The notes: generated by a model not told the origin, from the letters alone. 64,000 bases of DNA from an uncultured Acidobacteriota bacterium (GCA_963822445.1 CAWGHO010000003.1:448001-512000), one strand, 5' to 3'; counted from the stretch's first letter, positions 18,460 to 63,604 are shown. Numbers and translations: made by a program.

Positions 18460-18475
18460 GGTAGGATTCGGGCCG

Positions 18476-20841
<2,366 letters not shown>

Positions 20842-20842
<1 letters not shown>

Positions 20843-37360: not shown

Positions 37361-37387
37361 CGTAATCCCAACCTAGAATACGAACGG

Positions 37388-45272: not shown

Positions 45273-46445
45273 TTGCGCGCGCCGCCGCGTCTCACTCCCG
45301 TGGCCTTCGTTCGGCTCCTCCTGCTCGCTGTCGGACTTCTGAATCTGCGCGGATGCTTCACGCCGTTGTGTGACGCCGTCCGGCGCTATGAGACGAAGGT
45401 CATCGCGACGCGCACGGGCGATCAGTTGCTGCGCGATGCCGCGCGCACGGCCGGCGGCGATCTCCTCCTCGACATGGGAATCGGCTACCTGCCGCCCGAG
45501 TATCACCACACCGTCGTGCGCGCGAACGATGTGTACGGACCGCAGGAACTGGCGAAGTTCAAGCTGACGGACCACTACGGCTCCGGCGTGGTCGCGGCGG
45601 GGGAGTCCTGGTGGTATTCGATCGCCGGACGGCGCGACGGTAAGAGCGAGTCGGGCGTCTTTTTCGCGACTCCCGAGGTGACGTTCGTTGCGGTCGACGA
45701 GATCCACAGCGCCGAGTGGCTGCCGCTCGATGACGAGGAACCGCGCGGACTGCTCGTCGGCCACGACCGCGACGGGTTGCGCGCGGTTGAAGTCACCCGC
45801 GAAGGTGTGCGCCGCCAGTGGCCGCTGCCGATGCAGATCGCCGTGGCTTCGGTCTGGCGCTCGGCCGAACGGCTCGACGGCGGCGCGATCGCCCTCGTGT
45901 ACTTCGACCACGCCGAAAGCAGGATCGTTCTGGAGATGCTCGACGGAGACGAGCCGGTGCGCACCGTGTTGCGAGGGAACCCGTCCTGGTCGCACGTCCG
46001 GCTGACGACCGCGCTGTCGGCTGACGGCATGCTCGCGGTCGTCCTGGAATCGAAATCAGGCGAGCTCGAGGCCGCGGTCTTCGATCCGCGCAATCCGGGC
46101 GAGTTGAAGTGGCAGCGTCTTACGGCGAAGGATGAGTCGGGGCGCTATCCGCGGGTGATCTTTCACGACGGGAAGTTCATCGCCGCCTGGCTGGCCTCGA
46201 CGAAGGAGCTGCGCGCCCGGACGTTTACCGCCGAAGGCACCGGTCCGGCAGGCACCATCGCCCCGTTGGTACAGCGCGGAACCCGAGATCCGGCGATCAC
46301 GATCATCCCCGACGGGGAGGAGCTGCTCTTCCTCTGGCAGGCGGACGAAGTGATGGTCCGAAGGGTGCCCGAGGACTTTGCCGGGCTCTGGTTTGTGGAG
46401 CAGCTTTGCCAGTTATTTGGTGGCACCTCGGTTGCAGCTCGGTGA
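45273..46445 (+). CDS. Hypothetical membrane-anchored or secreted protein
   Basis: 390-aa ORF between ridA and the metalloprotease; N-terminal hydrophobic segment; start uncertain. Confidence 0.6.
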   Translation: MRAPPRLTPVAFVRLLLLAVGLLNLRGCFTPLCDAVRRYETKVIATRTGDQLLRDAARTAGGDLLLDMGIGYLPPEYHHTVVRANDVYGPQELAKFKLTDHYGSGVVAAGESWWYSIAGRRDGKSESGVFFATPEVTFVAVDEIHSAEWLPLDDEEPRGLLVGHDRDGLRAVEVTREGVRRQWPLPMQIAVASVWRSAERLDGGAIALVYFDHAESRIVLEMLDGDEPVRTVLRGNPSWSHVRLTTALSADGMLAVVLESKSGELEAAVFDPRNPGELKWQRLTAKDESGRYPRVIFHDGKFIAAWLASTKELRARTFTAEGTGPAGTIAPLVQRGTRDPAITIIPDGEELLFLWQADEVMVRRVPEDFAGLWFVEQLCQLFGGTSVAAR

Positions 46446-46452
46446 GATCACC

Positions 46453-47730
46453 ATGTCCCTGCGGATCCCGGTGGCCCTTCTCGCGTTACTCCTTACGATT
46501 CCGGCACTTGCGTCGACCCGGCTGACGTACGACATCCAGGGGACGCCGACCGCCCTGGAATGGGCGCCGACGTCGTTCCCGCTGCAGTACGAGATCGACC
46601 AGCGGCTGATTCAATCGCGGGCCAATGCCCAGTCGCTCGTCGACGGCGCGTTTGCCGCCTGGAGCGAGCTCCCCGAGACGAACATCCAGTTCGAGACTCT
46701 CGGCACCACCAACAGCATCTCCGACACGAGCGCCGGCCGGATCGTGGTCTCGCTTGCCGACGATCTCTTCAAAGGTCAGGGCGCGCTGGCCATGACTACC
46801 TACAGCTTCGATCGCACCACCGGGCACTTCACCGACGCCGACATCATGGTCGACCCGTCGCTGCTCACCGGAAACTTCAACTTCCAGATGGCCCTGCAGC
46901 ACGAGATCGGTCACGTCCTCGGCCTCGATCACTCCGGCGTCATCTCCGCGGTCATGTATCCGTTCCTCAGCAGCGGCGACGCGCCGGCGGCGTTCGACAG
47001 CGATGACCGTATCGGCATCGCCATGACCTATCCGAAGAGCGATCCCACGCTGAACGGCGCGACGCTGACGGGGCGGGTGATGGGCGCCACTGGCGCGATT
47101 TTCGGCGCGCAGGTCGTTGCGGTCAGCGATCGCGGCCAGCCGATGGCCACCGCACTGACCAACGCCAACGGCGATTTCACGCTCGCCGGCATTCCTGCGG
47201 GCGCGTATCGCATCTACGCGGAGCCGCTCGACGGTCCCGTCGATCCGAAGTCGCTGCGCGGCACCTGGCGCGGCGCGAGCTCCATCTCCTTCCCGACGCA
47301 GTTCTTCGGTGAGACGCCGCTCGTCGTCGAGAGCGGTCGCGTGTACGGCAACCTCGTCGTCACCGCCGCGGGCGGCATGGGCCTCAATCCGAAATGGATC
47401 GGCGCCGGCGCCTCGACCTCGCACACGATGAGTCTCGGCACCACGCCGGCAACGGTGTATCCCGGCCAGGCGGTGAAGCTCGCCGTCGGCGGCGACGGCT
47501 TCACCAGCGGCATGACCGAGTTCGAAGTGCTCAATCCCGGCTTCCGCCGCGTCGGCAACTTCGAATACGCCTCGAACTACGTGACCGCGCAGTTCGTGAT
47601 CGAGCCCGACGCCACCGCGGGCTCAGCAGTCGTGCTCGTGAAGAGCGGCAACGACGTCGCCACGCTCACGGGTGCGCTGAAAGTGCATCGCGCCGCGGCG
47701 TCGCCAAAAGGGCGAGCCGTCAGGCGCTGA
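46453..47730 (+). CDS. Matrixin (M10)-family metalloprotease + carboxypeptidase-regulatory-like and Ig-like domains; ends KGRAVRR
   Basis: Signal peptide; HEIGHVLGLDHS zinc motif; AVMYP Met-turn. Confidence 0.9.
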   Translation: MSLRIPVALLALLLTIPALASTRLTYDIQGTPTALEWAPTSFPLQYEIDQRLIQSRANAQSLVDGAFAAWSELPETNIQFETLGTTNSISDTSAGRIVVSLADDLFKGQGALAMTTYSFDRTTGHFTDADIMVDPSLLTGNFNFQMALQHEIGHVLGLDHSGVISAVMYPFLSSGDAPAAFDSDDRIGIAMTYPKSDPTLNGATLTGRVMGATGAIFGAQVVAVSDRGQPMATALTNANGDFTLAGIPAGAYRIYAEPLDGPVDPKSLRGTWRGASSISFPTQFFGETPLVVESGRVYGNLVVTAAGGMGLNPKWIGAGASTSHTMSLGTTPATVYPGQAVKLAVGGDGFTSGMTEFEVLNPGFRRVGNFEYASNYVTAQFVIEPDATAGSAVVLVKSGNDVATLTGALKVHRAAASPKGRAVRR

Positions 47731-47861
47731 TCGCCGCCCTCTCCGGTACGGGCATACGGCATTCCTGAAATCTTATGTATCAGGATTGACGGAATTCGTC
47801 TGCGAACGTACGTTTGGAGCGCCCCAGGCGCAGTCCGAACCAGCGACGTGGAGAACCTGTC

Positions 47862-49424
47862 ATGGCGGAGTGGGAGCGCGATCAGCCCCGGATCGATGCG
47901 GCGATGGACGTTCTGTTCAAGATCCCGGGCGTCCATATGGTCTATGTCGGGCGGCGGTACCGCGACGGCCGGCCGACCGAGGAAGCGGCGCTGTGCGTCC
48001 TGGTGCGGCTGAAAAAGTCGATCGATCAGGTTGCGCCGAGCGAGCGCGTCCCTCGCGAAGTGGCCGGCATACCAACCGATGTCATGGAGGCCGATCCGCC
48101 GCGCCAGGTCCAGACCAAGCCCGATACCGATTACCTGCAGCCGAGCCAGGAGGACCTTCCGACCACTGACGACGAGGAGTACGCGCGTCTTCGCGGCGGC
48201 ATCCGCTGCGAAGGCGGCGGCGGCTCGGGGACGCTCGGATGTCTGGCCCGCGCCACCGACGCCCAGAATATGGACAAGCTCGTCCTTCTATCCAACTACC
48301 ACGTTCTGGTGAACAAGGGATCGGGGGAGGGGACGACGGTGTACCAGCCTCGCAGCAGTTGCTGCTGCTGCGGACGGAAGGTCGGCACCGTGCTCCGCTC
48401 GCGGAAAACCAACACCGGCGCGTTCTTCAAGCAGGCGTCGCAGCCCGCGACCATCGACGCCGCCATCGCCCTCATCAATCCCGGGATCGAGTGCCTCGGC
48501 GAGATGCAGACCGGCACGGGCAGCGGCAGTCCGTCGGAGCTCATCACTGGCGTTCGTCCCGATGCCTCGATCACTACCGGGCTGGCCGTCCGGAAACGCG
48601 GCAGCCGCTCCGGTCCGACACCCGGCACCATCGAATCGCGCACCGGCACCTCGCACAGCTCGACCGACACTCCTAAAGACAAAGACCAGGCGTTCCGGCG
48701 CCAACTCGTCATCGATCCGTGGGACCACACCACGATGACGGGCGTCCACCGCTTCACAGCGGGCGGTGATTCCGGCTCCGCGGTCATGACCCAGACCGGA
48801 GGTGAAATCGTCGGCCTGCTCTGGGGCGGCTTCGTGTTCCGGCCGAACGCCGGCACCGACAATCCGGTCGTGGTCAAGGGCATCGTCTCGAACATCCACG
48901 AAGTCACGACCGCCCTCAACATCAGCATCCTCACCGCGACCGCGCTCAACCAGGTCCAGACGAATCCCGCCGCCGACCCGGTCCCTCCCGCCGACGCTTT
49001 CGCTCCCCAGCCGCTGCCGCAACCGATCGGGCGGACGATGCTCGATCAGGCCCGGCTCGACATCGAGCGCACCGTTCACGGCCGCGCGTACGCGGAGCTC
49101 ATCCGCCGCCATCATTCCGAGGTGTGGCGGCTGGTGCGGGAGAACCGCCGCGTCGGCGCGATCTGGAAACGCTACGGCGGACAGACGCTCGTACAGGCGC
49201 TGATCAACGCCGTCGCCCGTCCCGATGAGCCCATCCCTGCGACGATCGGCGCGCGTCCGGTCGACCAGTCCACGGCGCGCATCGCCGCGATGCTCAAGCG
49301 TTACGGCAGCGCCGCGCTCGCGCGCGACGTCGACGCCTACGAACGGGGCATCGTCGGCCTCTGCGGCTGCACTTACAACGATCTGCTGGCGCGACTGCGC
49401 GCCGGCGAGCCGGTGATGAGCTGA
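47862..49424 (+). CDS. Trypsin-like (S1, Nal1-type) serine protease with an N-terminal prodomain and C-terminal helical domain
   Basis: VPREVAGIPTDV prodomain motif, GTLGC, LSNYHVL (His), IDAAIA (Asp), GDSGS (Ser); no signal peptide. Confidence 0.85.
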   Translation: MAEWERDQPRIDAAMDVLFKIPGVHMVYVGRRYRDGRPTEEAALCVLVRLKKSIDQVAPSERVPREVAGIPTDVMEADPPRQVQTKPDTDYLQPSQEDLPTTDDEEYARLRGGIRCEGGGGSGTLGCLARATDAQNMDKLVLLSNYHVLVNKGSGEGTTVYQPRSSCCCCGRKVGTVLRSRKTNTGAFFKQASQPATIDAAIALINPGIECLGEMQTGTGSGSPSELITGVRPDASITTGLAVRKRGSRSGPTPGTIESRTGTSHSSTDTPKDKDQAFRRQLVIDPWDHTTMTGVHRFTAGGDSGSAVMTQTGGEIVGLLWGGFVFRPNAGTDNPVVVKGIVSNIHEVTTALNISILTATALNQVQTNPAADPVPPADAFAPQPLPQPIGRTMLDQARLDIERTVHGRAYAELIRRHHSEVWRLVRENRRVGAIWKRYGGQTLVQALINAVARPDEPIPATIGARPVDQSTARIAAMLKRYGSAALARDVDAYERGIVGLCGCTYNDLLARLRAGEPVMS

Positions 49425-49431
49425 GAACCCC

Positions 49432-52400
49432 GTGCCGACACCAGCAGGAACGCTCGAAGTTCTCTCCGGCGGCATCGCCCGCATCCTCCAGCCGCTGAGC
49501 GAAGAGCTCGACCCGGCAAAGGTGCTCGATTTCTTCGGCCGCCTCGGCGTGCAGTTCCCGCCGGCGCTGCTGACTCCTCCGCTCACCGCGGCGCTGAACA
49601 CCGCCAGCGAATCGGGACGCGGACTCCCGGCGGCCGTCGATCAGCTCAACGCCGCCATCGCCGGCAACGACTCCGACCAGGTTCTCATTGCGACGATCGA
49701 CGTCATCGGCCGCATCGTCGCGTTCACCGCCTCGCTCGTCGCGGTGCAGGATCAGCTGGACAGCATGCCGCCGCCGGCGGGCGTCACGCAGCAGCAGATG
49801 GACGACTTCGTCGCCGAGCTGCCGGGCGCCATTCTCGATTACGCCATCGTCCGCACGGGCGAGGTGTACGTGCCGTCGGTGACGGCTATCCTCGCCCTGG
49901 TCGGCCTCATCGACCGCGTGAGAGTCCCCGGCGATCCCACGAACCCGACGAAGCCCGACTACACCACGCGCCGCATCCGCCTCGACCGACTCGGCAAGTT
50001 CCTCAGCAACCCCCTCGGCTACGCTGAGGATCTGGTGGGTTGGGGGCCGGCGTTCAACGCGAATGCGCTGCTGCAGCGCGTGCAGGATTTCCACAACGAC
50101 ATGGCCATCCCGAGCACGCTCGGGCCGGGCGGCTTCGAATCGTATGCGTTCGACCTCTCCGCCGCAGCGGGATCGCCCCCCGGCGTCGCATTCGAGATCC
50201 ACGTTCCCATCACCGCCGGCATCGATCTCACGATCCCGTGGTGTACGGGATGGGCGTTCCATCTGCTCACCGAAGCTTCGGCCGATACGACGATCGATGG
50301 GAGCGTGAGATATCCCGACCTCGTCGAAGCGAATGCGGCCGCCGACATCAGCGGGCGCGCGCTGATCGGCATCTCCCGCGACGTGGTCCCTCCCGCGACC
50401 GAGATCATCCTCATCGGCCAGCCCGGCGGCAGCCGCATTTCGGTGGCCAGCTTCCGCGCCGACGCGGGAGTGCGCTTCCGCTGGAATTCAGGAAGCGGGG
50501 ACGCCACCGTCGAGCCGGACGTGCAGGGGACGATCGTCGGCGCGAAGGTGATCATCGACACGTCGAACGCGGATGGGTTCATCGGCACGCTGACGAGTGG
50601 GATCAGGGTCGAAGGAGGTTTCGACGCGCAGCTCGGATGGGCGCCGTCGACCGGCATCCGCTTCGAAGGGAGTGCGACGATCGAGATCCAGATCCCGCTT
50701 CACGTCTCCCTCGGACCGATCGACATCTCGTCGCTCTACCTCGTCGGCGGCATCAGCGGCGGCGACTCCGGCATCGCCATTCCGCTCGAGCTCTCGGTCG
50801 GCCTCGGCGCGAAGCTCGGCCCGCTCGAGGCGGCCGTGGAGCGCATCGGCGCGAAGGCGATGGTCACCTTTCCCGAGGAAGGCGGGAATCTGGGGCCGGC
50901 GAACATCAGCTTCGAGTTCAAGCCGCCGAGCGGGGTCGGCCTGGCCGTCGACGCGGGCGTGGTCAAAGGCGGCGGTTACCTCTACATCGACGTCGAGCGC
51001 GGCGAATACGCGGGCGCGCTCGAGCTCACGTTCAGCGGCTTCGTCTCGATCAAGGCCATCGGCATCATCACCACGAAGATGCCCGACGGCTCGCCGGGCT
51101 TCTCGCTGCTGATCATCATGTGGGTCGAGTTCGCGAGCGGCATCCAGCTCGGATTCGGCTTCGCGCTCTTCGCTGTCGGCGGCCTGCTCGGCCTCAACCG
51201 CACGATGAAGCTGCAGGCGCTGATGGAAGGCGTCCGCAGCGGCGCGATCGATCGGATCATGTTCCCGCAGAACATCGTGGCCAACGCGCCGAAGATCATC
51301 AGCGATCTGCGCGCGATCTTCCCGCCGCAGGAGGGGACGTTCCTCATCGGGCCGATGGTCAAGCTCGGATGGGGGACGCCGACGCTGATCAGCGTGACGC
51401 TCGGCATCATCATCGAGATCCCCGGCAACATCGCCATCCTCGGCGTGATCAAGATCGCCGCTGCCGACGGAAGCGGCGGCGCTGGTCGTGCTGCAGGTCA
51501 ACTTCGTCGGCGCGATCGAGTTCGACAAGAAGCGGCTCTGGTTCTTCGCCGCGCTGTTCGAGTCGCGGGTCGCTGTTCCTCACGATCGAGGGCGAGATGG
51601 GACTGCTCGTGGCCTGGGGCGACGACGCGAACTTCGTCGTCAGCGTGGGCGGCTTCCATCCCCGATTCACACCGCCGCCGCTGCCGTTCCCGATCCCGAG
51701 GCGCATCGCCGATCAGCCTGATCAACACGTCGTCGGCGCGCGTGCGCGTCGAGGGCTATTTCGCGGTCACCTCGAACACGCGTGCAGTTCGGCGCGCGCG
51801 TCGAGGTGTTCTTCGGCATCGGCGACGTCTTGAACATCAACGGCCATCTCGCGTTCGACGCGCTGTTCCAGTTCTCGCCGTTCTGCTTCGTCATCGAGAT
51901 CTCCGCGTCGCTCTCGGTGAAGGTGTTCGGCGTCGGCCTGTTCAGCGTCCGCGTCAGCGGCTCGCTCGACGGCCCGACGCCGTGGCGCGTGGCCGGCCAG
52001 GGCTCGATCTCGCTGCTGTTCTTCGACATCAACGTCGACTTCGAAAAGACGTGGGGGGAGACGAACAAGGCCAAGCTGCCGCCGATCGCAGTGCTGCCGA
52101 TCATCCGCGCGGAGCTGGACAAGGCGGAGACCTGGCGCGCCCTGCCGCCGGCGAACAACAACCTGCTGGTCTCGCTGCGCAAGATGCCGGAAGAAGAAGC
52201 GGCGCTGGTGCTGCATCCCGTTGGGGTGCTGCGCGTCTCGCAGCGTGCCCTTCCGCTCGCGATCACGCTCGACAAGGTCGGCGACCAGAAGCCGAGCGAC
52301 GTCAACAAGTTGACCATCGTCGTGGCCGGCGGCGGGCTGGCCCAGAAGGCGGACGCGTTCGAGCGTTCGCGCCGGCGCAGTTCCAGGAGCTCAGCGACGC

Positions 52401-52849
52401 GGACAAGCTGTCGCGGCCCGCGTTCTCGCAGGAGCGCTCGGGATTGGAGCTGTCCGCGGCCGGCGAGGACGTGCGCACCGGCGGCATGATCCGCCGCGTC
52501 GTGCGCTACGAAGAGATCATCATCGACTCGAATTTCAAGCGTTTCGTCGCGCCGCTTCCAGCTTCTCGGCGCGCTCCTGTTCGACTTCTTCCTCGGCGGC
52601 GCGGCGGTGGCCAAATCGGAGCTCTCCCTGGCCACGAAGAAGCAGTGCAGCCGTTCGACGACAAGATCGACGTGAAGGAGGCGACGTACACCGTCGCCCT
52701 GCAGGCGAACAACCACGCCTACTCGGCGGCTGCGGCCACGTTCACGAGCGAGGCGAGCGCGCAGGAGTTCCTCAAGAGTGAAGTGGCGAAGAACCCGAAC
52801 GCTCGCCGAGTCGCTGCACGTGATTCCGAGCTGGGAGCAGGCTGCATGA
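49432..52849 (+). CDS. DUF6603-like large beta-rich protein (about 1140 aa); several frameshifts between about 51460 and 52810
   Basis: GGGYL..YAGALEL..GFGFAL..VGGLLGLNR..GPMVKLGWG, SVGGFHPRF, SLDGPTPWRVAG, FAPAQF motifs (family recognised from memory). True end SLHVIPSWEQAA* at 52849. Confidence 0.75.
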
Positions 52850-55800
52850 GCATCCTCGGCACGTACTCGTTCCTGCCGTGGATGCGGCAGGGGCTCGCGA
52901 ACCAGATCACGTCGCCCGATCCGAATCCGGCCGCGGCGCTGCGGGCCGAGGTGCAGGTGCAGTTGGAGCTGCGCGCAACGGAAGTGGGCGGCGCCGAGCG
53001 TCCGGGCGAGCCGATCGACCGGAACGTCGCCCTCTTCGGCCCGGGAGACATCCAAGGCATCGAGCAGCGCGCCATCGTCCGCACTGATCCGCGCAACTGG
53101 ATCACCAACTTCGAGCCGAACTACCTCCCGTGCATCGAGTTCTACGACGAGGATTTCCCGTGGCGCTACACCCCCGCGGCTCCCGCCGGCGCGCGCCTCC
53201 GGCCGTGGATCATGCTGGTGGTCCTGCAGGAGAACGAGGAGTTCGAGGAAGGGAAGGACATCCGCGACAAGCCCCTGCCCTATATCGAAGTTCCGAACGC
53301 GGACACTGTCTTTCCGCCGCCCGAGCAGCTCTGGGCCTGGGCGCACGTGCACATCAACAAGAGCGTGGCCGCGAATGACACGCAGTTCCGTGCGAATACG
53401 CCGGCCGAGGTCGAGGCGGTTGCGCCGCGCGTGCGCAGCGTGATCGACGCGAACCGCGACAACGCCTACTCGCGCATTCTCTGCCCGCGCAAGCTCGCGC
53501 CGAACACCGCCTACCACGCATTCCTGGTCCCGGTGTTCGAGACTGGACGCCTGGCGGGACTGGGGCTGCCGTTCGATACCGTACCCAGCCCGACCATCTC
53601 GGCGTGGAAAGACGACTACGCGGCCAAAGGGCAGAACGCGCCGACGCAGTTCCCGCACTACTACCGCTGGTACTTCCGCACCGGCGCCACCGGCGACTTC
53701 GAGACTCTGGTGCGCCTGCTCGTGCCGAAGCCGGTCGACAAGCGGGTCGGCACGCGCGACATGGACGTCCTCGACCCCGGACTGAACGTCGATGCGGAGC
53801 CGAAGTTCAGCGGCATTCTCAAGCTCGGCGGCGCGCTCCGCGTGCCGCGCAAGAACTACACGGAAGCGGAGCTGGATCAGGTCGAGGCGCTGGAGAACTG
53901 GGCCACGGACCCGGCGAGCGAGTATCCGCGTCCGATCCAGCAGGACCTCGCCGCTCTCATCAACCTGAGCGACGACTACGCGGAAGCCGCGGCCGACGCC
54001 GCGAACGCGGCCGCCGGCATCATCGATCCGGAGAATCCGACCGAGAACGATCCCGATCCGGTGATCACTCTGCCGCTGTACGGGACGTGGCACGCCCTCA
54101 CCAAGCGGCTGCTGCGCGAGCGCGACAACACCCCCCTCACGCCGAACGACAACTGGATCCACGAGCTGAACCTCGATCCGCGATTCCGCGTCGCTGCCGG
54201 CTTCGGCACGCGCGTCGTGCAGGACCAGCAGGAGAAGCTGATGGACGCGGCGTGGGAGCAGGTCGGCCGCGTGCTCGAGGCCCGCCGGCGCATCCGCTTC
54301 GGCCAGTTCGCGAAGGAAGTCTCCACGATCTGGTACGACCGCCATCTGGTGCCTCTCGTCGGCACGACCGGCACGAACGGCGCGAACCGGCAGAAGGGTC
54401 TGCTGCTGCTCGCGCCGCTCAACAAGCGGGTCATCGCCAACGGGTTCACGGTCCACAACCACCTCGGCGAGAGCTTTCTGCAACCGGCGATGCTCTCCGC
54501 ACCGCTGCGCCGCATCCTCCGCCCGCGCGGACGGCTCATTTCACTGACGCCGTTCACGCCGGAGATCCGGCCGGACAACCTCATCGACCGCGTCAACGAA
54601 GGCACCGTCAACGCCTCGCCTCCGAAAGTGCGGCCGCCCGGCATCCTCACACCCGACGACATCGCTGATGAGGTGCTGCCCGACAACATCCCGCCGGCGC
54701 TCGTCGAGAAACTCCGCCTCTCGCCGTGGCTGCGCTGGCTGCTGCTGCTGATCGCGGCAATCCTGATCATTCTTCTCTTCGCCTTCACACCGACGGGCAT
54801 CGCCGCCACCGTCGGCATCGCCATCCTCGCGCTCGTGATCTGGCTTTTCCTGCTCCTGACGCGATGGAGCAATCAGATCGCGGCCTCCGACACATTGCGC
54901 GAGGACAACCGGGCACCGGAGAGGGTCGATGACTTGCCGCTCAGTCCGAACTTCACGCTCACCGACTTCGGCACCATCCCGAACATCACCATCGGCACGA
55001 CCGACAGCACCGAGGCGGTGCGCTTCAAGTCCGGACTGAAGAACGCCTGGGGGCTCATCACCTCGGGGAAAGAGGCCAGCGTCGTTCCGGCGAAGAAGAA
55101 GCTCGACCTCGGCGCGATCGCTGAAACATTCGTGACCGCGATCAATCCCGCCCTCACCGTGCCGCGGCGCGTCTACGCCGGCATCTTCCTGCCGCCGCGC
55201 ATCGTCCTGGAGATCGGGGAGACCTTCGTCGAGCCGATGGCCTATCCGATCTTCGACACGCCGATGTACGAGCCGCTGACGAAGCCTTCGGCCGAGCTGT
55301 TTCTGCCGAACCTCAATCTGATCGAGCAGAACAGCATCACCCTGCTGGAGACGAACCAGAAGTTCATCGAGTCCTACATGGTCGGGCTCAATCACGAGTT
55401 CGCGCGCGAACTGTTGTGGCGCGAGTACCCGACCGACCAGCGCGGCAGCTACTTCCGGCAGTTCTGGGACGTGCGCAGCTTCTTCAACCCCACGAACATG
55501 AACGACGAGGACTTCAGGGAGTCCTTGCGCGACATCCCGAAGCTGCATCTCTGGTCGAGGCTCTCGAAGCTCGGAGATCACGATCATCGCGAGGAAGGGC
55601 TGGACAACGAACAGGAGCTCGTACTGGTCATCCGCGGCGAGCTGCTCAAGCGCTATCCGAACACCGTCATCTACGCGCACCGCGCGCGCTGGCAGTTGAA
55701 GTCCGACGGCACGATCGACAACACGCTGGAGCGCCGCCTCGTCGATCTCGTCGGCGCCGAAATCGACAAGCCGCCGAAAGACAAAGTCCTGACGCCGCTC

Positions 55801-56244
55801 TACGAGGCGAAGGTCGATCCCGACATCTACTTCTTCGGCTTCGACCTCACCATCGAGGCGGCGGCCGGCGGCACCGGCGCGAACCCGGCCGACGATCCCG
55901 GCTGGTTCTTCGTTCTCAAGGAGCGTCCCGGCGAGCCGCGCTTCGGCCTCGACTTCACCGACCCGCCTCCCAACCCGGCGCGTCCGCTCCACATCTGGGG
56001 CGACCTGGCGTGGTCGGACGTGCAACCCGGTCCGGACGGCTCGTTCATCGAGATCACCAACGCCACGCCGACGCGCGCGTTGACGATCCCTACCGGCCCG
56101 GACTCGGAGAAGCTGCCGCAGCACGACGACGACAAGAACATCCCTTTCAACAAGGACATGAACGCGGCCGATCTGGCCTACGTGCTGTTCCAGGCGCCGG
56201 TGCTCGTCGCCATACACGCCAGCGAGATGCTGCCGAAGAATTGA
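52846..56244 (+). CDS. Conserved hypothetical protein (1132 aa) with an internal TM hairpin
   Basis: ATGA overlap with the upstream gene; motifs EPNYLPCIEF..DFPWRYTP, WAWAHVH, NLDPRFRVAAGFG, NHEFARELLWREYPTDQRGSYFRQFWD, EPRFGLD. Confidence 0.8.
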   Translation: MSILGTYSFLPWMRQGLANQITSPDPNPAAALRAEVQVQLELRATEVGGAERPGEPIDRNVALFGPGDIQGIEQRAIVRTDPRNWITNFEPNYLPCIEFYDEDFPWRYTPAAPAGARLRPWIMLVVLQENEEFEEGKDIRDKPLPYIEVPNADTVFPPPEQLWAWAHVHINKSVAANDTQFRANTPAEVEAVAPRVRSVIDANRDNAYSRILCPRKLAPNTAYHAFLVPVFETGRLAGLGLPFDTVPSPTISAWKDDYAAKGQNAPTQFPHYYRWYFRTGATGDFETLVRLLVPKPVDKRVGTRDMDVLDPGLNVDAEPKFSGILKLGGALRVPRKNYTEAELDQVEALENWATDPASEYPRPIQQDLAALINLSDDYAEAAADAANAAAGIIDPENPTENDPDPVITLPLYGTWHALTKRLLRERDNTPLTPNDNWIHELNLDPRFRVAAGFGTRVVQDQQEKLMDAAWEQVGRVLEARRRIRFGQFAKEVSTIWYDRHLVPLVGTTGTNGANRQKGLLLLAPLNKRVIANGFTVHNHLGESFLQPAMLSAPLRRILRPRGRLISLTPFTPEIRPDNLIDRVNEGTVNASPPKVRPPGILTPDDIADEVLPDNIPPALVEKLRLSPWLRWLLLLIAAILIILLFAFTPTGIAATVGIAILALVIWLFLLLTRWSNQIAASDTLREDNRAPERVDDLPLSPNFTLTDFGTIPNITIGTTDSTEAVRFKSGLKNAWGLITSGKEASVVPAKKKLDLGAIAETFVTAINPALTVPRRVYAGIFLPPRIVLEIGETFVEPMAYPIFDTPMYEPLTKPSAELFLPNLNLIEQNSITLLETNQKFIESYMVGLNHEFARELLWREYPTDQRGSYFRQFWDVRSFFNPTNMNDEDFRESLRDIPKLHLWSRLSKLGDHDHREEGLDNEQELVLVIRGELLKRYPNTVIYAHRARWQLKSDGTIDNTLERRLVDLVGAEIDKPPKDKVLTPLYEAKVDPDIYFFGFDLTIEAAAGGTGANPADDPGWFFVLKERPGEPRFGLDFTDPPPNPARPLHIWGDLAWSDVQPGPDGSFIEITNATPTRALTIPTGPDSEKLPQHDDDKNIPFNKDMNAADLAYVLFQAPVLVAIHASEMLPKN

Positions 56245-56251
56245 TTGACCG

Positions 56252-59200
56252 ATGGCCACATTCGACGAAGTCCGCCAGCAGCTCCGCCAGGCCCGCGTCG
56301 ATGCCGACGCGAAAGGGGAGGCCGCGTTCGCCGCCAGGGAGCGCCTGTGGCGCATCGAGCGCGAGCAGGAAGCACTGCGCCGCCGGTTCGATCCCGAGAA
56401 CGCCGATCACGTGCAGCGTGCGGCGGCGCTCGACGAAGCCCACGCGAAGTTGACGCAGGACATCGCCGATGCGCGCCAGATCCGCAACGACGCCATCGCC
56501 GTCGAGACCGGCCTCCTCGGCCAGTTCGCACAGTTCAGCGACCCCCGCGACGCCATCGAGCAGCTCAACGATCAATATCCGATTCTCCTGCTGCCGGTGC
56601 GGCTCGAGACACGCTTCAAAGGCGACCAGCTCTGGGTGCGGGTCTATCCGGACGACATCTCCGTCGACACGTTCGAGCCGCTGCTTTCGGTCAGCGAAGT
56701 AGCCAGCGCGAAGGAGTACTGGACGGGCATCTGGCAGGGACGCGGCTTCGAAGACCAGGAGCGCGGCGCGTGGCGCGGGCTGGTGGCCAGCCATGGGTCG
56801 GGACGGGCGGCGTGGATCCTCGACGTCCGCCAATACGAGCCGCTGAACCTCGCCGACCTGCAGCCGAAGGCCAGTGCCACCGACGTCGTGCTGACCATTG
56901 CCACCGAGGTGCTGCCGAACCCGGCTGAGAACGCGGCGATCGGCGCGTACTGGATCGCGCTCTGGAAGGCGGACGGCGACGCGCAGCAATCGCAGGACGC
57001 GCTCGACGCGCTCGTCACCGCGCTGGGCGCCGCGCGCGCGGACGAGATCGCGAACGGGCCGCAGCCTTCGAACTTCGCGACCGTGCCGGTTCTGCCGGAT
57101 ACGAAGCAGAGCGTCACCACGACCTTTTCCTGGGTCGTCTTCCCCGACAGCGCAACGCTGGAGCTGAAAGAAAACTCGTGGGCCCGCGCGGCCCGCGCGG
57201 TTCTGCTGCCGGACCGCTTCGTCTTCATCGGCTATCGCACCGGCGCCGCGCCGCGCATCGCCCTCGGAGCCCCGGTGCCGTCGTCGCTCGTCGTTGGTCC
57301 CGATCCTTCCGCCCCCGAGACCGAGCAACTGCGTCGCGACGCCGCCGGCAACCTGATCATCCCGGACGACATGCTGTGGATGGTCGACTTCGACCGCGCC
57401 GTGCAGGTGGGGATGGGCTTCCGTCTCGAGCTCGACGCGTTCGAGGCTGCGAACGGCTTCGATCGCGTCCTCGTCGTCGGCATCCGCGCCGGTGACGACG
57501 AGACGGAGGCCGCGCAGGGGCTGGCCACACTCATCGAGCATCACCGCTTCAGCCGCACCGGCTTCGAGGTCGTGCCGCAGGGAACGCCGACGAACAACAC
57601 CGAGGCGGCGAGCACGCCGTTCGTGCGTGGCGCGGTTGCCGACGCGAGCTTCAACGACCGCAAGACCGGCGACCTGTTCACCCACTCCGATTCATGGCTC
57701 ACCAAAGCGGACGGCCAGTGGCTGGCCGAATGGCTCGGTCTCGACGAAGCGGCGTTCCAGCGCGTACACGGTGCGGGCGGGCGCGACCAGGGCGACGCGC
57801 GGGCGATGAACGTCGCCCTCTGGCCGGCCACGATCGACTACTGGATGGAGTCGCTGATGGACCCGGGCTTCGATACCGAGGAGATCAGCCAGACCCGCGA
57901 CTTCTTCACGACCTATGTCAGCGGCCGCGGCGCGGTGCCCGCCATCCGGGTCGGACGTCAGCCCTACGGCATCCTGCCGGCGACCGCGCTCTCGCGGATG
58001 CAGTGGCTGCAGCCGAAGAACACCGACGGCGCGCTCTTTCGCTCCTACCATTGGCGGCTCTACCAGTTCCTGCTGCGCGTCGATGCGCAGTGGCGTGCCC
58101 TGGTCTCGCTCGTTGCGTACGCCGGCAAGCCAGACGTCGATCCGCACGAGAATCTGCTCCACATCGTTGGCCTCCACTCCGGCGCGGCCAGTTGGGCGTA
58201 CCGCTGGGCGGAAAGCGCGGACCAGTACTGGAACCAGCTCGTCTTCATGTCCTGGAACCAGTTCTCCCTCGACCCCTTCAAGCAAGAGGCCGCGACCGCG
58301 TTACTGAACGATTTCGGCTGGCTGCGCGAGCCGTATCCGAACATCCTCGAGAAGTTCTTCTTCGGCAAACACGATCCGCTCACCGGCCCGATCGTCGACG
58401 ACGTCCCGCTCTCCGAGACCGCGCCGATCCGCAGCTACACGGACGACGATCGCAACTACATCCAGTGGCTGATCGACGCATCGAATGTCTCGCTGCAGAC
58501 GCTCTACGCGCAGGACGGTTTCAAAAGCGACCTTCCACCGAAGGCGCTCCTCTATCTCCTGCTGCGCCACGCGCTACAGCTCGGCTATCACGACGTCGCC
58601 GTGCGCCTGCACTCCGAATTGAACCTGCTCGATCCGGTGAGCGCCCGCGCCGCGAAACGCGACAACCCGTTCATCCACGTGCGCGAGCAGGCGGCGCAGA
58701 GCGAGAGCCGGTATCAGATCCTGTACAAGACCGAGCCGCTGATCAGCGCCACGGAGCCGGTCGGGCAGTACATCGCCGCGCAACTGCAGAAGCCCGACTT
58801 CTTCGCCGGCCGCATGCTGTCCCGGCAGCTCGAGGCGCTCGAGCTGCTGAAGGACGCCTCCACGGCGCGGCTCGAGCGCGCGTTCGCGGAGCACATCGAT
58901 CTGTGCACCTACCGCCTCGACGCCTGGCTCCTCGGCCTGGTGCACCTGCAGCTCGCCAGCATGCGCAACAACGAAGAGACGGTGTCGTCGCCGCCGCGCA
59001 AAGGCGTCCACGTCGGCGCCTACGCCTGGCTCGAGAACCTCCGTCCCGAGAACAAAGTGCTGACGCCGTTCACGCCGGAAGATCCGGAGCTGGCTGCGAT
59101 CTTCGCCGGCTCTCCGCAGCTGGTGAAAGACTCGACGAACTTCGGCTACATCCACGCGCCGTCGCTCAATCACGCCGTCGCCGCGGCCGTACTCCGCAAC

Positions 59201-61757
59201 GGCTACACGTCGAACGCCTCGCCAGCTAACCGGCAGTCGCTGGCCGTGAACCTCAGCTCGGAGCGCGTGCGCACCGCCGTCGCGCTGATCGAGGGCATCC
59301 GCGCCGGCCAGAGCCTCGCCGCGCTCCTCGGCTATCAGTTCGAGCGCGGCATGCACGACCGCAACGCGGCGGTGAACGTCGATCAATACATCTGTGACCT
59401 CCGCCTGGCGTTTCCGCTGGCCGGCAACCGGATCAGCTCCACGGCGCCGCCCGAGGGGACGCCCATCGAGGCGGTGGAGGCGCGGAACGTCATCGACGGC
59501 CTCGCTCTCGTCAATCAGATCAAGACCTCGAACCAGAAGACCTATCCGTTCGGAAAAGCGGGGCTGCCGGCGATCGCTGATGCGAGCGCGCGCGCCATCA
59601 TCAACGATGAAGCGGACCGCCTCGTCGAAAGCCACGACGCCGTCGCCGATCTCGCCCTCGCGGAAGGGGTGTATCAGGCCGTCCTCGGCAACTACGACCG
59701 CGTCGCGTCGACGTACGACGCCTATGCGAAAGGGCGAGTTTCCGCCCGAGCCGCAGGTCGTGCGCACACCTTCGAACGGCGTCGGGCTCACGCACCGCGT
59801 CGCGCTTCATCTCACGCCCGGTCTGCTTCCCACCGACTCGCCCCTCGGCCCCGGCATCCCCATGACCCCGCGCGCGCAGGCGGAGCCGGCTATCAACCGG
59901 TGGCTGTTCGACAGCATGCCGCCCCTCGGCGACGTCGGCTGCATGGTGTCGTTCCGCGACGCGCCCACCAACGCCGACGTCGAGCGCGAAGTCACGCTGC
60001 TCGACCTCGCCGTGCAGCCGGCCGACTTCCTCCGCCTGTTCCGCGATGCGGCGCAGCAGGAGATGGCGGAGCTCGACGATCGCATCGTCCGCCACATCTT
60101 CAACACCGAGACGCCGCGGCCCGACACGCCGGTGACGATCCGCTACATGGACAAGGACACCGCGCCGATCTCCGTCTTCGAGCTCCTGCCGCTGCTGCGT
60201 CAGTTGCGGCGGCTCGCCACCACCTCGCGGCCGCTGCGCTCGAGCGACTCTTCACGCTCGAACGACGCGCAGCAGCAGCAGGACGCGAGCGTGTCGGTGA
60301 ATCCGGCGCGCATCACAGGCGTCCGCGCGTCGCTCCTCATGCTCGCCGTCGATCTGCAGAACTTCATCGACAGCGTGTCGCCCGATCCGCTCGTGCGCAT
60401 CGCCGACTTCGAGAGCTATCTGGCCGACGTCGTGACGCTGCTCCCGCGCGTCGTGGAGTTCGGCATTCCGCAAACCGGCTGGGGCTTCGCGTACGACGCG
60501 AAGCGGCGTCTCTTCCAGGCCGTGATCGAGAAGGTTGCGGCCATCGTCGCGCGGTGGAACGAACGGCTGGCGAAGTTCGACGGATTCATGCTCGCGTACG
60601 ATCCGGCCGCCGACGAGCCGACGAAGCTCGCGCTCCTGGCGCAGGCCGCGCTGCAGATCACGAGCGCTCCGCTGCCGCAGACCGGACTCGCCGACGCCAT
60701 CAAAGTCGATCTCGAGACCACGGCGCGCGACGCGTTCGTCGCCAAACGCGACGAGCTGGTGGCGTTCCTCGGCACCACCGAGACGACGGCGCCGCAGCTT
60801 CTCATCGATGCGAACGCGCTTCTGCCGCTCACCGCCTTCGATGTGGCCGAGGTGTCGTTTGCGGATGAGGAGCAATTGGCGGTGCTCTTTGCCGACGACG
60901 CCGTGAACGTCATGCAGGTCGTGCTCGACGAGGCTGAGCGCCGGCTGGCGGCATCGCTGACGCATCTCGATGCGCACGACGCGGCATCCGAGCCGTCGGC
61001 GCGCGTCGACGCGCTCGACGCGGCCGCGAAAGCGCTCCTCGGCGACGACGTCTTCGTCGTTCCCGAGTTCACGCTCGCCGCGGAGCACGGAAACGAGCTC
61101 GCGAATGCCGTCGACTCCAACACCTCTGGAGCGCTGTTCGCGCATCTCGTCGCGAACGATCCGTTCCCGGTCGACACGTGGCTATACGGCGTGGCTCGCG
61201 TGCGCGACAAGATCCGCGCCCTCGAGCAGGTGATCATGCTCGCCGAAGCATTCGGCATCGCCTCGCCGCCCGAGCTGACGGCGCTGCAGCTGCCGTATAT
61301 CGAGAACGAAGGATGGTTCGCGCTCGAGCTTCCGCCGAGCCCGAAGCTCGACGTCGATCGACTGCTCTACACGGCCGTGCTCTCGACGCCGTTCGACGAG
61401 ACCGCGCCGCAATGCGGCCTGCTGCTCGACGAATGGACGGAAGTCATCCCCACTCCGGAGGTCGAGACCGGCATCGCCTTCCACTACGACCGGCCGAACT
61501 GCGAGGCGCCGCAGAGCCTCCTGCTCGTCACGCCGTCGGACTTCCGCGGCGAATGGCAGTGGAACGATCTCGTCGACGCGCTGAACGAGACGCTCGACTT
61601 CGCGAAGCGCCGCGCCGTCGAGCCGGATCAGATCGACACCACCGCCTACGCGCGATTCCTCCCCGCCACCGTCTCGGCGGTGACGCGGCAGCAGATCACG
61701 ATCTCGGCCATGTACGCGCTCAACAACAACTTCGTCCTGCGGGAAGGTGAGCCATGA
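56252..61757 (+). CDS. Conserved hypothetical protein (about 1834 aa) with an N-terminal coiled coil; one frameshift near 59732
   Basis: LLPVRLETRF, PQGTPTNN, RVGRQPYGILP, YRLDAW, GYIHAPSLNHA, SSERVR, then after the shift EFPPEPQVVRTP...GLLLDEWTEVIP..FHYDRPNCEAPQ. Confidence 0.8.
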
Positions 61758-63604
61758 AATTCGTTCTCGAGGACGTCTCCGCCGCGGTGACGTCGCGGCT
61801 CTTCCCGACCGTGACGCTCTGGAACCGGCTGGAGGGACGTCCACGCGCCGACAAATTCGACCGCGCGCTCAAAGCAGAAGTACGTGACGCGCTCTGGATG
61901 CTGACCAGGCAGTGGCAGCTCGGCGAATTCGCCGGCGACGACGCCGGCTCGCCAATCGAGACGAAGGTGCACCTCACCTCCACGCGCCTGCGGAAGTACC
62001 AGCCGGACACGCACGCCATCGAGCCGTTCGACGACGACACGCCGCTGGAAGCGGACGTGGAGCGGCGGGCGATCTCGTTCGAACAGGGCGGACGTCCGGT
62101 CGCGCTCGACCTTCGTCTGCTCATGGGCAGGCACTGGCTCAAGCTTCTGCGCGCCGCGCTCGGCGTCGACCTGCGCGACGTGTTCGCCGGGAAGTATCCG
62201 ATCCACGAGCCCGATCCAACGCAGCAGCAGGATGCCATCTACTGCGCGCACGCCGAGGTGTGGAGCGTGTTCGACGCGGTGAGCGGACGGGCCGTCGACG
62301 GCGGTGCGCTCTACCAGGACATCGTCGACAATCCGCCGCGTCCCGCCTGGGGCGACATTCCGGAGGTCGCCGCCGATCCTGCGGTCGTCGATGGCGTGGC
62401 CAACGCGTTCCGGGCGTGGTTCGAGAAGCTCTTTTATCAGCCCGAACAGAACGACGCCTGGGTGCCGGAGCGGCTCGAGTACCGCTTCTCGGCCTCCGCA
62501 CCGGTGCAGGCCGACGGCAGCGAGAAGGTCTTCCTCGCCGACGAGTACTACCAGGGCCACCTCGACTGGTACTCCGTCGACATCGATCCCGACCGCGCCA
62601 GCCTCGGCCCGCTCGCGCCCGATCCCGCGCTGCCGAAGCCGGCAACGCTGGCGATGGTGCCGGTGCCGGTCAGCTTCAGCGGCATGCCGAACACGCGCTG
62701 GTGGACGTTCGAGGACGGGAAGACGAACTTCGGCGACGTGAAGCCGGAGACGACCGATCTGGCCAAACTGCTGTTGATCGAGTTCGGCCTCACGTTCGCG
62801 AACGACTGGTTCCTCATCCCGTTCACCGTCCCCGCCGGCTCGGTGGCGAAGGTGCAGGGGATCGCGGTGACGAACGTCTTCGGCGAGCGCACGTGGGTGG
62901 AGGCGGCCGGCCGCGGTCCGGACGACGACTGGCAACGCTGGGCGATGTTCGTCGTCAATACGCGCGGCGAGCAGGGAGAGCAAGCCGATACGTCGCTGTT
63001 GCTGATGCCGACCGCGCCGAAGGTGCAGGAAGGGCCGCGTCTGGAGGAGGTGATGCTCGCGCGGGACGAAGTCGCGAACATGGTCTGGGGCATCGAGCAG
63101 ACCATCCCGCTGCCGAGCGGGGAACCGAAACGGGGGCGGGAGGCGGCGCTCGAGCTGCGGGCCTTCCTCGAGCGCGACGTCACGCCGCAGGATCCGATTC
63201 CGTACGCGGGAGAAGCGCTGATCCGCTATCGCGTGATGAGCAGCGTGCCCGAGAACTGGATTCCGTTCGTGCCGGTGCACATGGACTCCGGCAACCGCGA
63301 GATCCAGCTCCAGCGCGCGGCCATGCCGCGGGTCATCGTCGGCAACCCGCCGCCGCCCATCCGCAAGATCCGCCCGCGCACGTCGCTCCTGCGCCCAGGT
63401 CTCGATGACAGTCCCCAGCAACCGTACTTCCTGCACGAAGAGGAAGTGCTCCGCGCGGGCACCGTCGTCACGCAGAGCTTCCAGCGCACCCGCTGGCGCG
63501 ACGGCCGCGCCTGGGTGTGGCTGGGCGTCCGTAAGAAAACGGGGAGGGGCGAGACGTCGAGCGGCCTGGCGTTCGACAGGATCGTGACGAAGCCGCAACC
63601 GTGA
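61754..63604 (+). CDS. Conserved hypothetical protein (616 aa), last gene of the operon
   Basis: ATGA overlap; WNRLEGRPR, DALWMLTRQWQLGEF.GDDAGSP, GMPNTRWWTFED, NDWFLIP, RDEVANMVWGIE, PENWIPF. Confidence 0.85.
   Translation: MKFVLEDVSAAVTSRLFPTVTLWNRLEGRPRADKFDRALKAEVRDALWMLTRQWQLGEFAGDDAGSPIETKVHLTSTRLRKYQPDTHAIEPFDDDTPLEADVERRAISFEQGGRPVALDLRLLMGRHWLKLLRAALGVDLRDVFAGKYPIHEPDPTQQQDAIYCAHAEVWSVFDAVSGRAVDGGALYQDIVDNPPRPAWGDIPEVAADPAVVDGVANAFRAWFEKLFYQPEQNDAWVPERLEYRFSASAPVQADGSEKVFLADEYYQGHLDWYSVDIDPDRASLGPLAPDPALPKPATLAMVPVPVSFSGMPNTRWWTFEDGKTNFGDVKPETTDLAKLLLIEFGLTFANDWFLIPFTVPAGSVAKVQGIAVTNVFGERTWVEAAGRGPDDDWQRWAMFVVNTRGEQGEQADTSLLLMPTAPKVQEGPRLEEVMLARDEVANMVWGIEQTIPLPSGEPKRGREAALELRAFLERDVTPQDPIPYAGEALIRYRVMSSVPENWIPFVPVHMDSGNREIQLQRAAMPRVIVGNPPPPIRKIRPRTSLLRPGLDDSPQQPYFLHEEEVLRAGTVVTQSFQRTRWRDGRAWVWLGVRKKTGRGETSSGLAFDRIVTKPQP

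Follow-up and report, generated by a model that had tools for sequence, protein, structure and literature searches.

A stretch of 64,000 nucleotides (nt) from the genome of an uncultured Acidobacteriota bacterium (GCA_963822445.1 CAWGHO010000003.1:448001-512000), called the window in what follows, contains an operon that raises a simple question: what do a protease and four large partner proteins, none of which belongs to a characterised family, build together? The operon is made up of five co-oriented genes on the + strand, g1 to g5, which open reading frame (ORF) listing and translation place in tight succession between positions 47862 and 63604. We find that g2, g3, g4 and g5 form a fixed and horizontally mobile module, and that the position of g1 is a slot where one enzyme gene is exchanged for another along with the beginning of g2. 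On this evidence the module appears to be an uncharacterised system of a new kind, and we tentatively favour for it a role in loading and delivering enzymes.

The first gene, g1 (47862-49424, 520 aa), starts with an ATG preceded by GGAGAA. A frame model based on the G+C content of third codon positions (GC3) puts the coding start at 47859, which favours this ATG over an upstream TTG at 47814. After a gap of 7 nt comes g2 (49432-52849), which has a GTG start and encodes a DUF6603 protein in frames that are broken in the assembly. The end of g2 overlaps the beginning of g3 (52846-56244, 1132 aa, intact) in an ATGA stop/start signal at 52846-52849. A second gap of 7 nt separates g3 from g4 (56252-61757, ATG start), which encodes about 1834 aa once a frame step is bridged, and g5 (61754-63604, 616 aa, intact) again begins within an ATGA overlap, at 61754-61757. 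The gene ends and junctions proposed in an earlier description made from the DNA alone (the sequence-only reading) are borne out at these exact coordinates. The sizes it gave are found directly for g1, g3 and g5 and, for g2 (about 1140 aa) and g4, after reading through the frame steps. The same description saw no signal peptide, and indeed the conserved N-termini of g2-g5 are non-hydrophobic in the family consensus; a hydropathy scan revealed no signal-peptide-like hydrophobic region there, a dedicated predictor not being used. No sigma-70-like promoter was found in a scan of the window, terminator-like sites are not more frequent in it than in shuffled sequence, and scans for tRNA genes, flanking repeats and Rfam matches were negative.

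A fixed module of four genes

A pattern scan for relatives of g3, with one genome per species, showed that at least 586 species genomes encode one; the best 80 loci among these stretches were analysed. When the proteins of the window were compared with the 80 loci by tblastn, g2 was found upstream in 74/74 loci with room for it, and g4 and g5 were each present in 64/64. All four genes have the same order and strand in each of the 64 loci with enough contig, an arrangement far beyond chance. Thus, g2-g3-g4-g5 is a fixed module. The analysed loci span at least nine phyla, across which g3, g4, g5 and the part of g2 that follows its N-terminal domain remain 45-65% identical. Each gene is one uninterrupted ORF in most loci, measuring about 1070-1190 aa for g2, 1069-1258 aa for g3, 1764-2081 aa for g4 and 610-650 aa for g5, with small overlaps or gaps between them. 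The exceptions are split genes (loci L005, L030 and L060) and a few first-start calls that run long. The 4-nt overlaps between module genes are kept at other loci, in agreement with the tight translational coupling that had been read from the window. The sequence-only reading also had a DUF6603-like gene and three motif families occurring together in diverse bacteria, and they do so in fixed order, in very diverse organisms and under hypothetical annotations only. Conserved synteny with variable cargo genes had been set beforehand as a test, and its outcome was a fixed core behind an upstream gene that varies.

The resemblance of g2 to DUF6603 proteins was confirmed above the family cut-off. 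The first 656 aa match PF20248 with an E-value of 3.7e-52 and 178 bits (curated cut-off 27 bits), the match starting at residue 423 and covering model positions 1-207. In the genome, three pieces exceed the cut-off and together cover model positions 1-485. Trees and identity comparisons delimit an N-terminal variable domain of about 420 aa (49432..50697, + strand), which is followed by a conserved part made up of the DUF6603 domain and a C-terminal region (50698..52849, + strand; eight frame steps). Hydropathy analysis of g2 shows mild Gly-rich segments only. A profile search of PDB sequences with g2 gave nothing credible, and no mention of DUF6603, PF20248 or IPR046538 was found in the searched literature.

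The three other members of the module represent three unnamed families. The proteins have no match in Pfam-A, NCBIfam, PADLOC or PHROGs, and their family profiles have none in PDB sequences. No domain common to g2, g3, g4 and g5 was detected with hhalign, and no recognisable NTPase occurs in the four proteins. The density of Trp, Pro and Gly motifs remarked upon in the window is borne out: alignments of g3, g4 and g5 contain many invariant columns of these residues.

Homologues of g3 number at least 3548 among 8000 scored candidates, and the 120 listed are 54-83% identical. These are named, if at all, "hypothetical protein", and none has a Pfam domain. Homologue names come from Acidobacteriota, Myxococcota, Actinomycetota, Pseudomonadota and Bacteroidota. 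The architecture of g3 consists of large, highly conserved N- and C-terminal domains that flank a variable middle, with a mean column identity of 66% across phyla, and a search of the ESM Atlas returned its own family only. Residues 628-674 (54727..54867, + strand) form a hydrophobic helical hairpin of 47 residues according to the Kyte-Doolittle scale, with 19-residue means of 2.7-3.4 in 8/8 homologues scanned. A subunit with such a hairpin had been expected from the window, and this one is the only strongly hydrophobic segment of the whole module. In g4 and g5 no hydrophobic segment is conserved, a few homologues having at most a single weak one (1.75-1.93) that does not recur.

Homologues of g4 are single ORFs of the lengths given above. 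In g4, the N-terminus is helical and charged, the motif LPVRLETRF at residue 114 is invariant, and a small stretch is duplicated internally (about residues 158-251 against 233-326, hhalign probability 94%). Searching 14 homologues in Pfam at E<=1 gave nothing consistent. For g5, the profile retrieves 5106 cluster representatives at E<=1e-3 among 1.84 billion, 2006 of them at E<=1e-30, and this gene is the best marker for the module. In a divergent subfamily, a g4-like part and g5 are fused in one protein of 1837-1950 aa, with g5 behind. This fusion makes a complex plausible. When g5 forms with a fusion or an extension were scanned with Pfam, only low-complexity or sub-threshold matches appeared (P0121; weak Laminin_G_3 in P0192).

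The distribution of the module was first measured within the phylum of the window, using an even draw of 301 genomes (the tallies include the unpublished genome G185). DUF6603 was found in 13/301 and g5 in 10/301, all 10 genomes with g5 lying within the 13. Besides the window's own genome, g5 and DUF6603 are on the same contig, about 10 kb apart, in 8/9 genomes. In three census genomes, DUF6603 belongs to different architectures (open frames of 3279, 1294 and 3326 aa), with g3-g5 absent from the vicinity. More generally, DUF6603 outside the module was observed at loci L094, L096, L097, L099 and L100 (genomes G055, G072, G140 and G281), in frames of 3279 and 3326 aa and of 1294-1484 aa, with no g3-g5 relatives in the fetched stretches. 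Closer to the window, g5 occurs in 3/41 related genomes, the window's own included, and in 2/24 other species of the genus, at 48-65% identity. A g5 tree with 60 rows shows 23 phylum changes for a least possible number of 8, and the window groups in it with rows from Actinomycetota and Pseudomonadota. Finally, 14 plasmid records carry a relative. Patchy occurrence of g5, excess phylum changes and plasmid copies lead us to conclude that the module is horizontally mobile and widely spread.

Two plasmids illustrate divergent versions. On the megaplasmid of the haloarchaeon Salinigranum marinum, the order is a PhoD-like protein, DUF6603, a g3-like protein, a g4-like protein annotated with a "BGTF surface domain" and a g5-like protein with two lamin-tail domains. 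On a plasmid of Streptomyces longwoodensis, it is a PG_binding_1 protein, DUF6603 (395 bits to PF20248), a g3-like protein with an FG-GAP repeat, and g4-like and g5-like proteins. The lamin-tail, FG-GAP, BGTF and PG-binding domains of these divergent versions are typical of extracellular proteins; a literature search on BGTF and lamin-tail returned nothing relevant. The divergent g3 proteins of Streptomyces and haloarchaea are devoid of the hydrophobic hairpin. On a plasmid of Streptomyces anthocyanicus (NZ_CP109276.1, locus L090), a g5 homologue (49% identical) stands alone, g2-g4 being absent, and two IS5 transposase genes lie a few kb away; this g5 is apparently what is left of the module. 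Genes like g3, g4 and g5 also stand in operon order on a 40-kb virome contig with 76% G+C, deposited as "Bacteriophage sp." and marked UNVERIFIED (MT835531.1, locus L088). A phage origin based on this record was rejected because the contig looks like cellular DNA. Carriers in culture, both tractable and non-pathogenic, include Chitinophaga, Kribbella (K. antiqua), Chelatococcus (C. asaccharovorans), Nitrosomonas (N. oligotropha) and Leptolyngbya, and where a record title names the carrier, it is mostly a free-living bacterium of soil or water.

The exchangeable slot and the beginning of g2

The module always lies directly downstream of an exchangeable enzyme gene. In the window this gene is g1, which has no match of its own in Pfam, NCBIfam or PDB sequences and matches phrog_20754 "protease" in PHROGs (E 8.6e-19). 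When the family profile of g1 (A9) is compared with the PDB, the best match is the plant protein NARROW LEAF 1 (NAL1), with an E-value of 4e-23 over profile positions 34-337. Spl (SplE), alpha-lytic protease, chymotrypsin and HtrA follow, the bacterial chymotrypsin-fold proteases appearing from E 8e-6. Catalytic motifs are found in g1 at 48294 (NYHVL, the His145 region), 48450 (TIDAAI, Asp) and 48765 (GDSGS, Ser). Among upstream homologues, H147 is conserved in 41/42, D199 in 42/42 and G302-D303-S304-G305 in 42/42. The triad in the order of the fold and the homology to known members both place g1, by its sequence, in the PA clan, as a chymotrypsin-fold serine protease of a NAL1-like family. 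Given the conservation of the triad and the profile matches to chymotrypsin-fold proteases, the enzyme looks active.

NAL1, the best solved relative of the g1 family, has the chymotrypsin fold and the His-Asp-Ser triad in common with it. In contrast, an extra C-terminal domain of docking type and the operon setting are found with g1 only, and nothing ties NAL1 to DUF6603. That a plant protein comes ahead of bacterial proteases as the nearest solved relative hints at a shared, possibly transferred, protease lineage; a literature search on NAL1 gave nothing relevant.

The C-terminal domain of g1 comprises about 90 aa (residues about 406-495; 49077..49346, + strand). An iterated hidden Markov model search retrieved it in 54 ORFs from 35/80 loci and the window. 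All of these ORFs are on the operon strand and upstream of g2, with the domain near the C-terminus of the protein and with 1-4 tandem genes per locus; by tblastn, up to five protease-like stretches are seen in one locus. Ten carriers were scanned, of which eight are subtilases (Peptidase_S8, PF00082) and two Trypsin_2 proteins. Hence, two unrelated protease folds carry one common C-terminal domain at the same position. No Pfam family covers this domain, which is a putative docking module. No copy of it was found by hhalign inside any core protein, and a homotypic, "death-domain-like" pairing of the protease domain with the core is not supported on that ground. A complex prediction pairing the domain (A5) with the N-domain of g2 (A6) scored 0.00 and was counted neither way.

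Apart from protease-like genes directly upstream of g2, no flanking gene family is conserved across the 80 loci. The protease with the shared C-terminal domain occupies the slot in only 35/80. When the 70 ORFs immediately upstream were clustered, 37 of them (the window's among them) grouped together as proteases and the remainder fell into many small classes. Twenty other proteins from this position were assigned as follows: five are M64-like (four of them above the Pfam cut-off), three are tyrosinases, one is a phospholipase D (PLD) enzyme and 11 have no family. The slots of the divergent plasmids hold the PhoD-like (haloarchaeal) and PG_binding_1 (Streptomyces) proteins mentioned above. None of the non-protease slot proteins has the 90-aa domain of the proteases. 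Two unnamed slot classes, c1 (for instance L014:5386-6537) and c3 (for instance L024:4488-6599), each keep one His (in an SHA-type motif) and one Cys (in a GC-x-x-G motif) without exception, and the two classes align around the Cys with a hhalign probability of 88%. They have no match in Pfam or PDB and may be cysteine hydrolases, judging from these residues.

The idea, put forward in the sequence-only reading, of a cognate protease that matures or triggers the complex is not supported, as it was put, by this comparison. The protease is not constant, and sister operons have a tyrosinase, an M64-like protein, a PLD enzyme or others in its place. Such swaps between sister operons mean that the slot behaves as an exchangeable enzyme or effector position and not as that of a maturation factor.

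What accompanies the enzyme gene when it is exchanged? Trees were built for the N-domain of g2 (70 rows, of which 57 are labelled with one of seven upstream-gene classes), with the C-terminal part of the same protein as contrast. On the N-domain tree, the upstream-gene class changes 6 times, which is the minimum possible. On the tree of the C-terminal part it changes 18 times, against a mean of 22.3 after shuffling, and on the g5 tree 18 times, against 19.3. Identities agree: N-domains are 0.27-0.43 identical within a class and 0.18-0.25 across classes, whereas the C-terminal part stays at about 0.55 in both cases. At matched identity of the C-terminal part (0.55-0.60), the N-domain is 0.29 identical within the same class and 0.195 between different classes.

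Well-supported sister operons that differ in their slot show the same break within single proteins. In L074 (tyrosinase) versus L075 (subtilase), in L053/L060 and in L047/L052, the g2 proteins share 16-23% identity over the N-domain and 77-79% over the remainder. This change occurs at about residue 420-480, at the start of PF20248. Because the upstream-gene class is followed perfectly by the N-domain but not by the rest of g2, we conclude that the enzyme gene and the 5′ third of g2 (about the first 400 residues) are exchanged as a unit on a conserved core. The N-domain of g2 is therefore a putative adaptor, which we infer to dock the enzyme. Carriers of chymotrypsin-type and of subtilisin-type proteases have one common class of g2 N-domain, which fits recognition of the shared C-terminal domain and not of the catalytic domain. 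Single-linkage BLAST clustering of the N-domains was also tried; it lumped all of them into one cluster and was set aside in favour of trees.

One g2 frame departs from this layout. At L101:1195-7086 (genome G258), a g2 frame of 1964 aa has about 1170 unassigned residues in place of the usual N-domain of about 360 aa, and may be a fusion of a slot protein with the adaptor. The N-terminal extension of such a long g2 (1168 aa) had no PDB sequence match in a profile search, and a search for long g2 fusions retrieved one protein only, with DUF6603 alone.

Integrity of the operon and its neighbours

ORF calling gives a single frame of 2270 aa from 49432 to 56244, spanning g2 and g3. This frame stays open only by chance, since from about 51460 to 52845 it reads through Arg-rich out-of-frame text. 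Aligned to a profile built from intact homologues, g2 passes through successive frames with no profile gap, and single extra bases are located at about 51460, 51572, 51711 and 51781. Four further single-base steps, near 52363, 52556, 52646 and 52800, come from three-frame translation and the GC3 frame model. In g4, one +1 step lies near 59735, and tblastn with homologues joins two window frames at 59730-59734. In total there are nine frame steps, eight in g2 and one in g4.

The sequence-only reading had proposed to check these frameshifts on reads. Three short-read soil-metagenome runs, from three studies, contain related operons, and contigs of relatives about 92-94% identical were used; the runs contain only 5-11% of sampled words, and the contigs represent related strains, not the source strain. 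These contigs have one base fewer at 51460 in two runs and at 59735 in three runs. Over 51027-53045, one relative's contig shows 10 gaps and is a net 4 bases shorter than the window, which is the length that an unbroken g2 frame needs. The check thus speaks for extra bases at 51460 and 59735 as seen from the relatives, but the state of the source strain is not shown by it.

A comparable cluster occurs elsewhere in the window. A gene at 18430-20864 (+ strand), identified by eye from thiamine pyrophosphate-binding and transketolase-like motifs as the E1 component of a 2-oxoacid dehydrogenase, is split into about 11 frame segments by about 10 single-base steps, mostly +1 and clustered as in g2. 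The phosphoglucomutase-like ORF just before it (17019-18429) is intact. The same pattern in the E1-like gene and in g2 points to local assembly errors in this genome, and the frame steps of g2 and g4 are probably errors of this kind, in the consensus or the assembly. The operon is therefore probably intact in the organism.

The alternative is that the nine steps are real mutations and that this copy of the operon is a decaying pseudogene cluster. We hold it to be unlikely. Nine steps within the 6.3 kb concerned in g2 and g4, eight of them clustered in 1.35 kb, do look like decay, and they lie outside long homopolymers. The compared contigs come from other strains, and remnants of the module exist elsewhere, for example the lone g5 beside IS5 copies on a Streptomyces plasmid. 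However, the correct frame pieces contain no in-frame stops, deletions or losses of conserved residues, the profile is gapless across the steps, and g1, g3 and g5 are intact. In addition, the step cluster at 18430-20864 affects a gene of central-metabolism type, and the completeness of the source genome (94.7%, in 3 contigs) is as expected if indel errors break marker genes.

The genes that precede the operon are neighbours only. Directly upstream of g1, the + strand encodes a matrixin (46378-47730; Peptidase_M10) that combines a clear signal peptide with a CarboxypepD_reg domain; before it comes a 390-aa ORF of no assigned family (45273-46445, + strand). Both were considered as parts of the module and rejected, since they are found at 0/80 related loci. 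About 13 kb upstream of the operon, a protein of 1073 aa (31465-34686, + strand) combines TIR_2 (E 2.8e-23) with HEAT repeats, matches NACHT/STAND NTPases weakly, and has weak PADLOC matches to Avs2 and to ThsB-type TIR models; it is likely a STAND-type immune protein. A 1317-aa ORF at 38216-42169 (+ strand) has a short match to patatin-like phospholipases (E 2e-7) and none in PADLOC; according to the GC3 frame model, coding in its frame already begins at 37386.

Candidate functions and their bearing

How could such parts work together? In the reading that we tentatively favour, g2-g5 and the enzyme would form an ATPase-less complex that loads an effector, inserts into a membrane and acts in delivery or as a toxin. 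The N-domain of g2 would dock the slot enzyme, proteases being held through their shared 90-aa C-terminal domain. A multi-subunit complex would be assembled from the DUF6603 core, the hairpin-bearing g3 and a g4 that works together with g5. This complex would then carry the enzyme to, or through, a membrane without ATP, insertion being carried out by the g3 hairpin or an equivalent adhesion module. Candidate interchangeable loads are serine proteases, metallopeptidase-like proteins, PLD enzymes, tyrosinase and phosphatase, and candidate targets are other microbes, grazers and the envelope of the producer itself. More broadly, and more tentatively still, g2-g5 may be the core of an unrecognised class of ATP-independent delivery or toxin machine, spread over many bacterial phyla and haloarchaea, to which the g2 adaptor and the g3 hairpin, or its equivalent, would give interchangeable enzymes and access to membranes.

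Several points weigh against this proposal. Antibacterial effectors usually need an immunity gene, and no immunity-like small gene was found beside the enzymes, the g1-g2 gap of the window being 7 nt. With no signal peptides in the module and no conserved secretion or lysis gene nearby, the exit route is unexplained. The g3 hairpin, which is missing in divergent versions, could simply anchor a cytoplasmic complex in the inner membrane. Injected toxins are not usually tyrosinases or PhoD-like enzymes, toxin systems engaged in an arms race do not usually have a core as highly conserved as this one, and a hypervariable receptor-binding region was not noted. Three upstream proteins (class c4) are lipoprotein-like with an export signal of their own, a poor fit to cargo loading. 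Finally, plain physical linkage also makes an upstream gene and the 5′ end of g2 travel together; what turns their co-inheritance into evidence for functional pairing is solely the position of the break, within g2 and at the border of a domain.

Known systems offer parallels in their logic. In type VI secretion systems (T6SS), phospholipases, peptidases and cell-wall enzymes are encoded beside their VgrG or PAAR carrier. Such cassettes resemble the module in having a conserved machine with exchangeable adjacent enzymes, and a variable end of the carrier that co-varies with the effector, as the g2 N-domain does here. However, g2-g5 have no match to sheath, tube, baseplate, ClpV or VgrG/PAAR proteins, there is neither an ATPase nor an immunity gene, and it is a DUF6603 protein that has the variable domain, at its N-terminus. 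No family of contractile injection systems (T6SS, extracellular systems, tailocins) was detected in g2-g5 with Pfam, NCBIfam or PHROGs.

Tc (ABC) toxins also have several very large subunits, no signal peptides or ATPases, a membrane-inserting element and a variable enzymatic payload, and they are likewise spread by transfer among environmental bacteria. In the module, the payload is a separate gene and not the C-terminus of a cocoon subunit, and no RHS, TcA/TcB/TcC or SpvB family was found in g2-g5 (Pfam, NCBIfam and PDB sequence profiles), a distinction made at the level of sequence. Pfam gave no match in g2-g5 to AsmA-like/DUF490-type (AsmA/TamB/VPS13) families at the level of sequence. The module resembles T6SS cassettes and Tc toxins in logic, and no kinship to either was found by sequence.

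Operons of bacterial gasdermins resemble it in that one or more protease genes immediately precede the gene of a protein that has a membrane-active element, and in their patchy, mobile occurrence. They differ in that the proteases here have the 90-aa docking-type domain instead of sensor repeats and can be replaced by non-proteases; no gasdermin domain was matched by g1-g5 in Pfam or PADLOC. Finally, the cargo tags of encapsulins and phage procapsids also direct unrelated enzymes, through a common C-terminal module, to an assembly encoded nearby, as is putatively the case here. Unlike them, the module of the proteases would be a folded domain of about 90 aa and not a short peptide, and non-protease slot proteins do not have it. 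No capsid-like family was detected with Pfam or PHROGs.

Among the alternatives, an intracellular conflict or abortive-infection system has the most in its favour and we consider it somewhat unlikely. According to it, g2-g5 would be a membrane-anchored cytoplasmic sensor or scaffold from which a trigger releases or activates the swappable effector, so that the cell is killed or arrested. Such a system would account for the patchy, transfer-driven distribution, for plasmid copies beside toxin-antitoxin and NB-ARC genes and for the lack of signal peptides. A swappable effector with a co-swapped adaptor is typical of defence systems, proteases and PLD enzymes are common defence effectors, and the TIR-NACHT and patatin-like proteins of the window lie 6-16 kb upstream of the operon. 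On the other hand, g1-g5 match 0 of 5027 PADLOC models (PADLOC-DB v2.0.0, no family at E<=0.01), so the anti-phage option of the sequence-only reading has no support from that database and is kept as a rival only. Moreover, no NTPase or nucleic-acid-binding domain was found with Pfam or NCBIfam, and no flanking gene family is common to the 80 loci. Tyrosinase, M64-like, PhoD-like and PG-binding proteins would be unusual defence effectors, and the divergent versions have domains of extracellular type (lamin-tail, FG-GAP, surface).

We find it improbable that the protease, along the lines first proposed, drives the assembly or activation of a structural or pore complex by cutting at least one of g2-g5. 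On this view the slot enzymes that are not this protease would be unrelated neighbours or alternative modifiers. Proteases with an intact triad are the commonest occupants of the slot (37/70 immediate upstream ORFs, window included), two unrelated protease folds carry the same C-terminal domain at the same position, and M64-like proteins are also peptidase-like. In bacterial gasdermin operons, protease genes adjoin pore formers. However, up to four tandem domain genes and five protease-like stretches per locus exceed what maturation needs, and near-identical cores are paired with a tyrosinase, a PLD enzyme or an unassigned protein. Furthermore, a cleavage substrate would stay constant, whereas the g2 N-domain varies with the upstream gene, as a docking site does. 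Of the sequence-only reading as a whole, the operon, the co-occurrence, the hairpin and the plausible complex are borne out, and the cognate maturation protease is not.

Still more doubtful is an apparatus for secretion or surface display whose exoenzymes (protease, phosphatase, tyrosinase, lipase) would be put to use in nutrient scavenging and not as weapons: slot enzymes of usually secreted families that have no signal peptide, surface-type domains on divergent core proteins and mostly free-living soil and water carriers are in its favour, but no energy source, outer-membrane component or conserved export partner was found, a patchy, strain-level occurrence fits an accessory trait better than a nutritional machine, and the same architecture occurs in very different envelopes, archaea included.

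The interest of the effector-loading reading lies in what the module combines. It is common despite its lack of characterisation, recurring in hundreds of bacterial and a few archaeal genomes, and it consists of a DUF protein and three large proteins that have neither a family name in Pfam, NCBIfam, PHROGs or PADLOC nor a solved relative. The enzyme-plus-adaptor cassette gives this module a concrete hypothesis, which names two binding partners, the cargo and an element for the membrane. If this hypothesis is true, the module would be a new kind of effector-deployment system, and a natural modular scaffold for the loading of enzymes.

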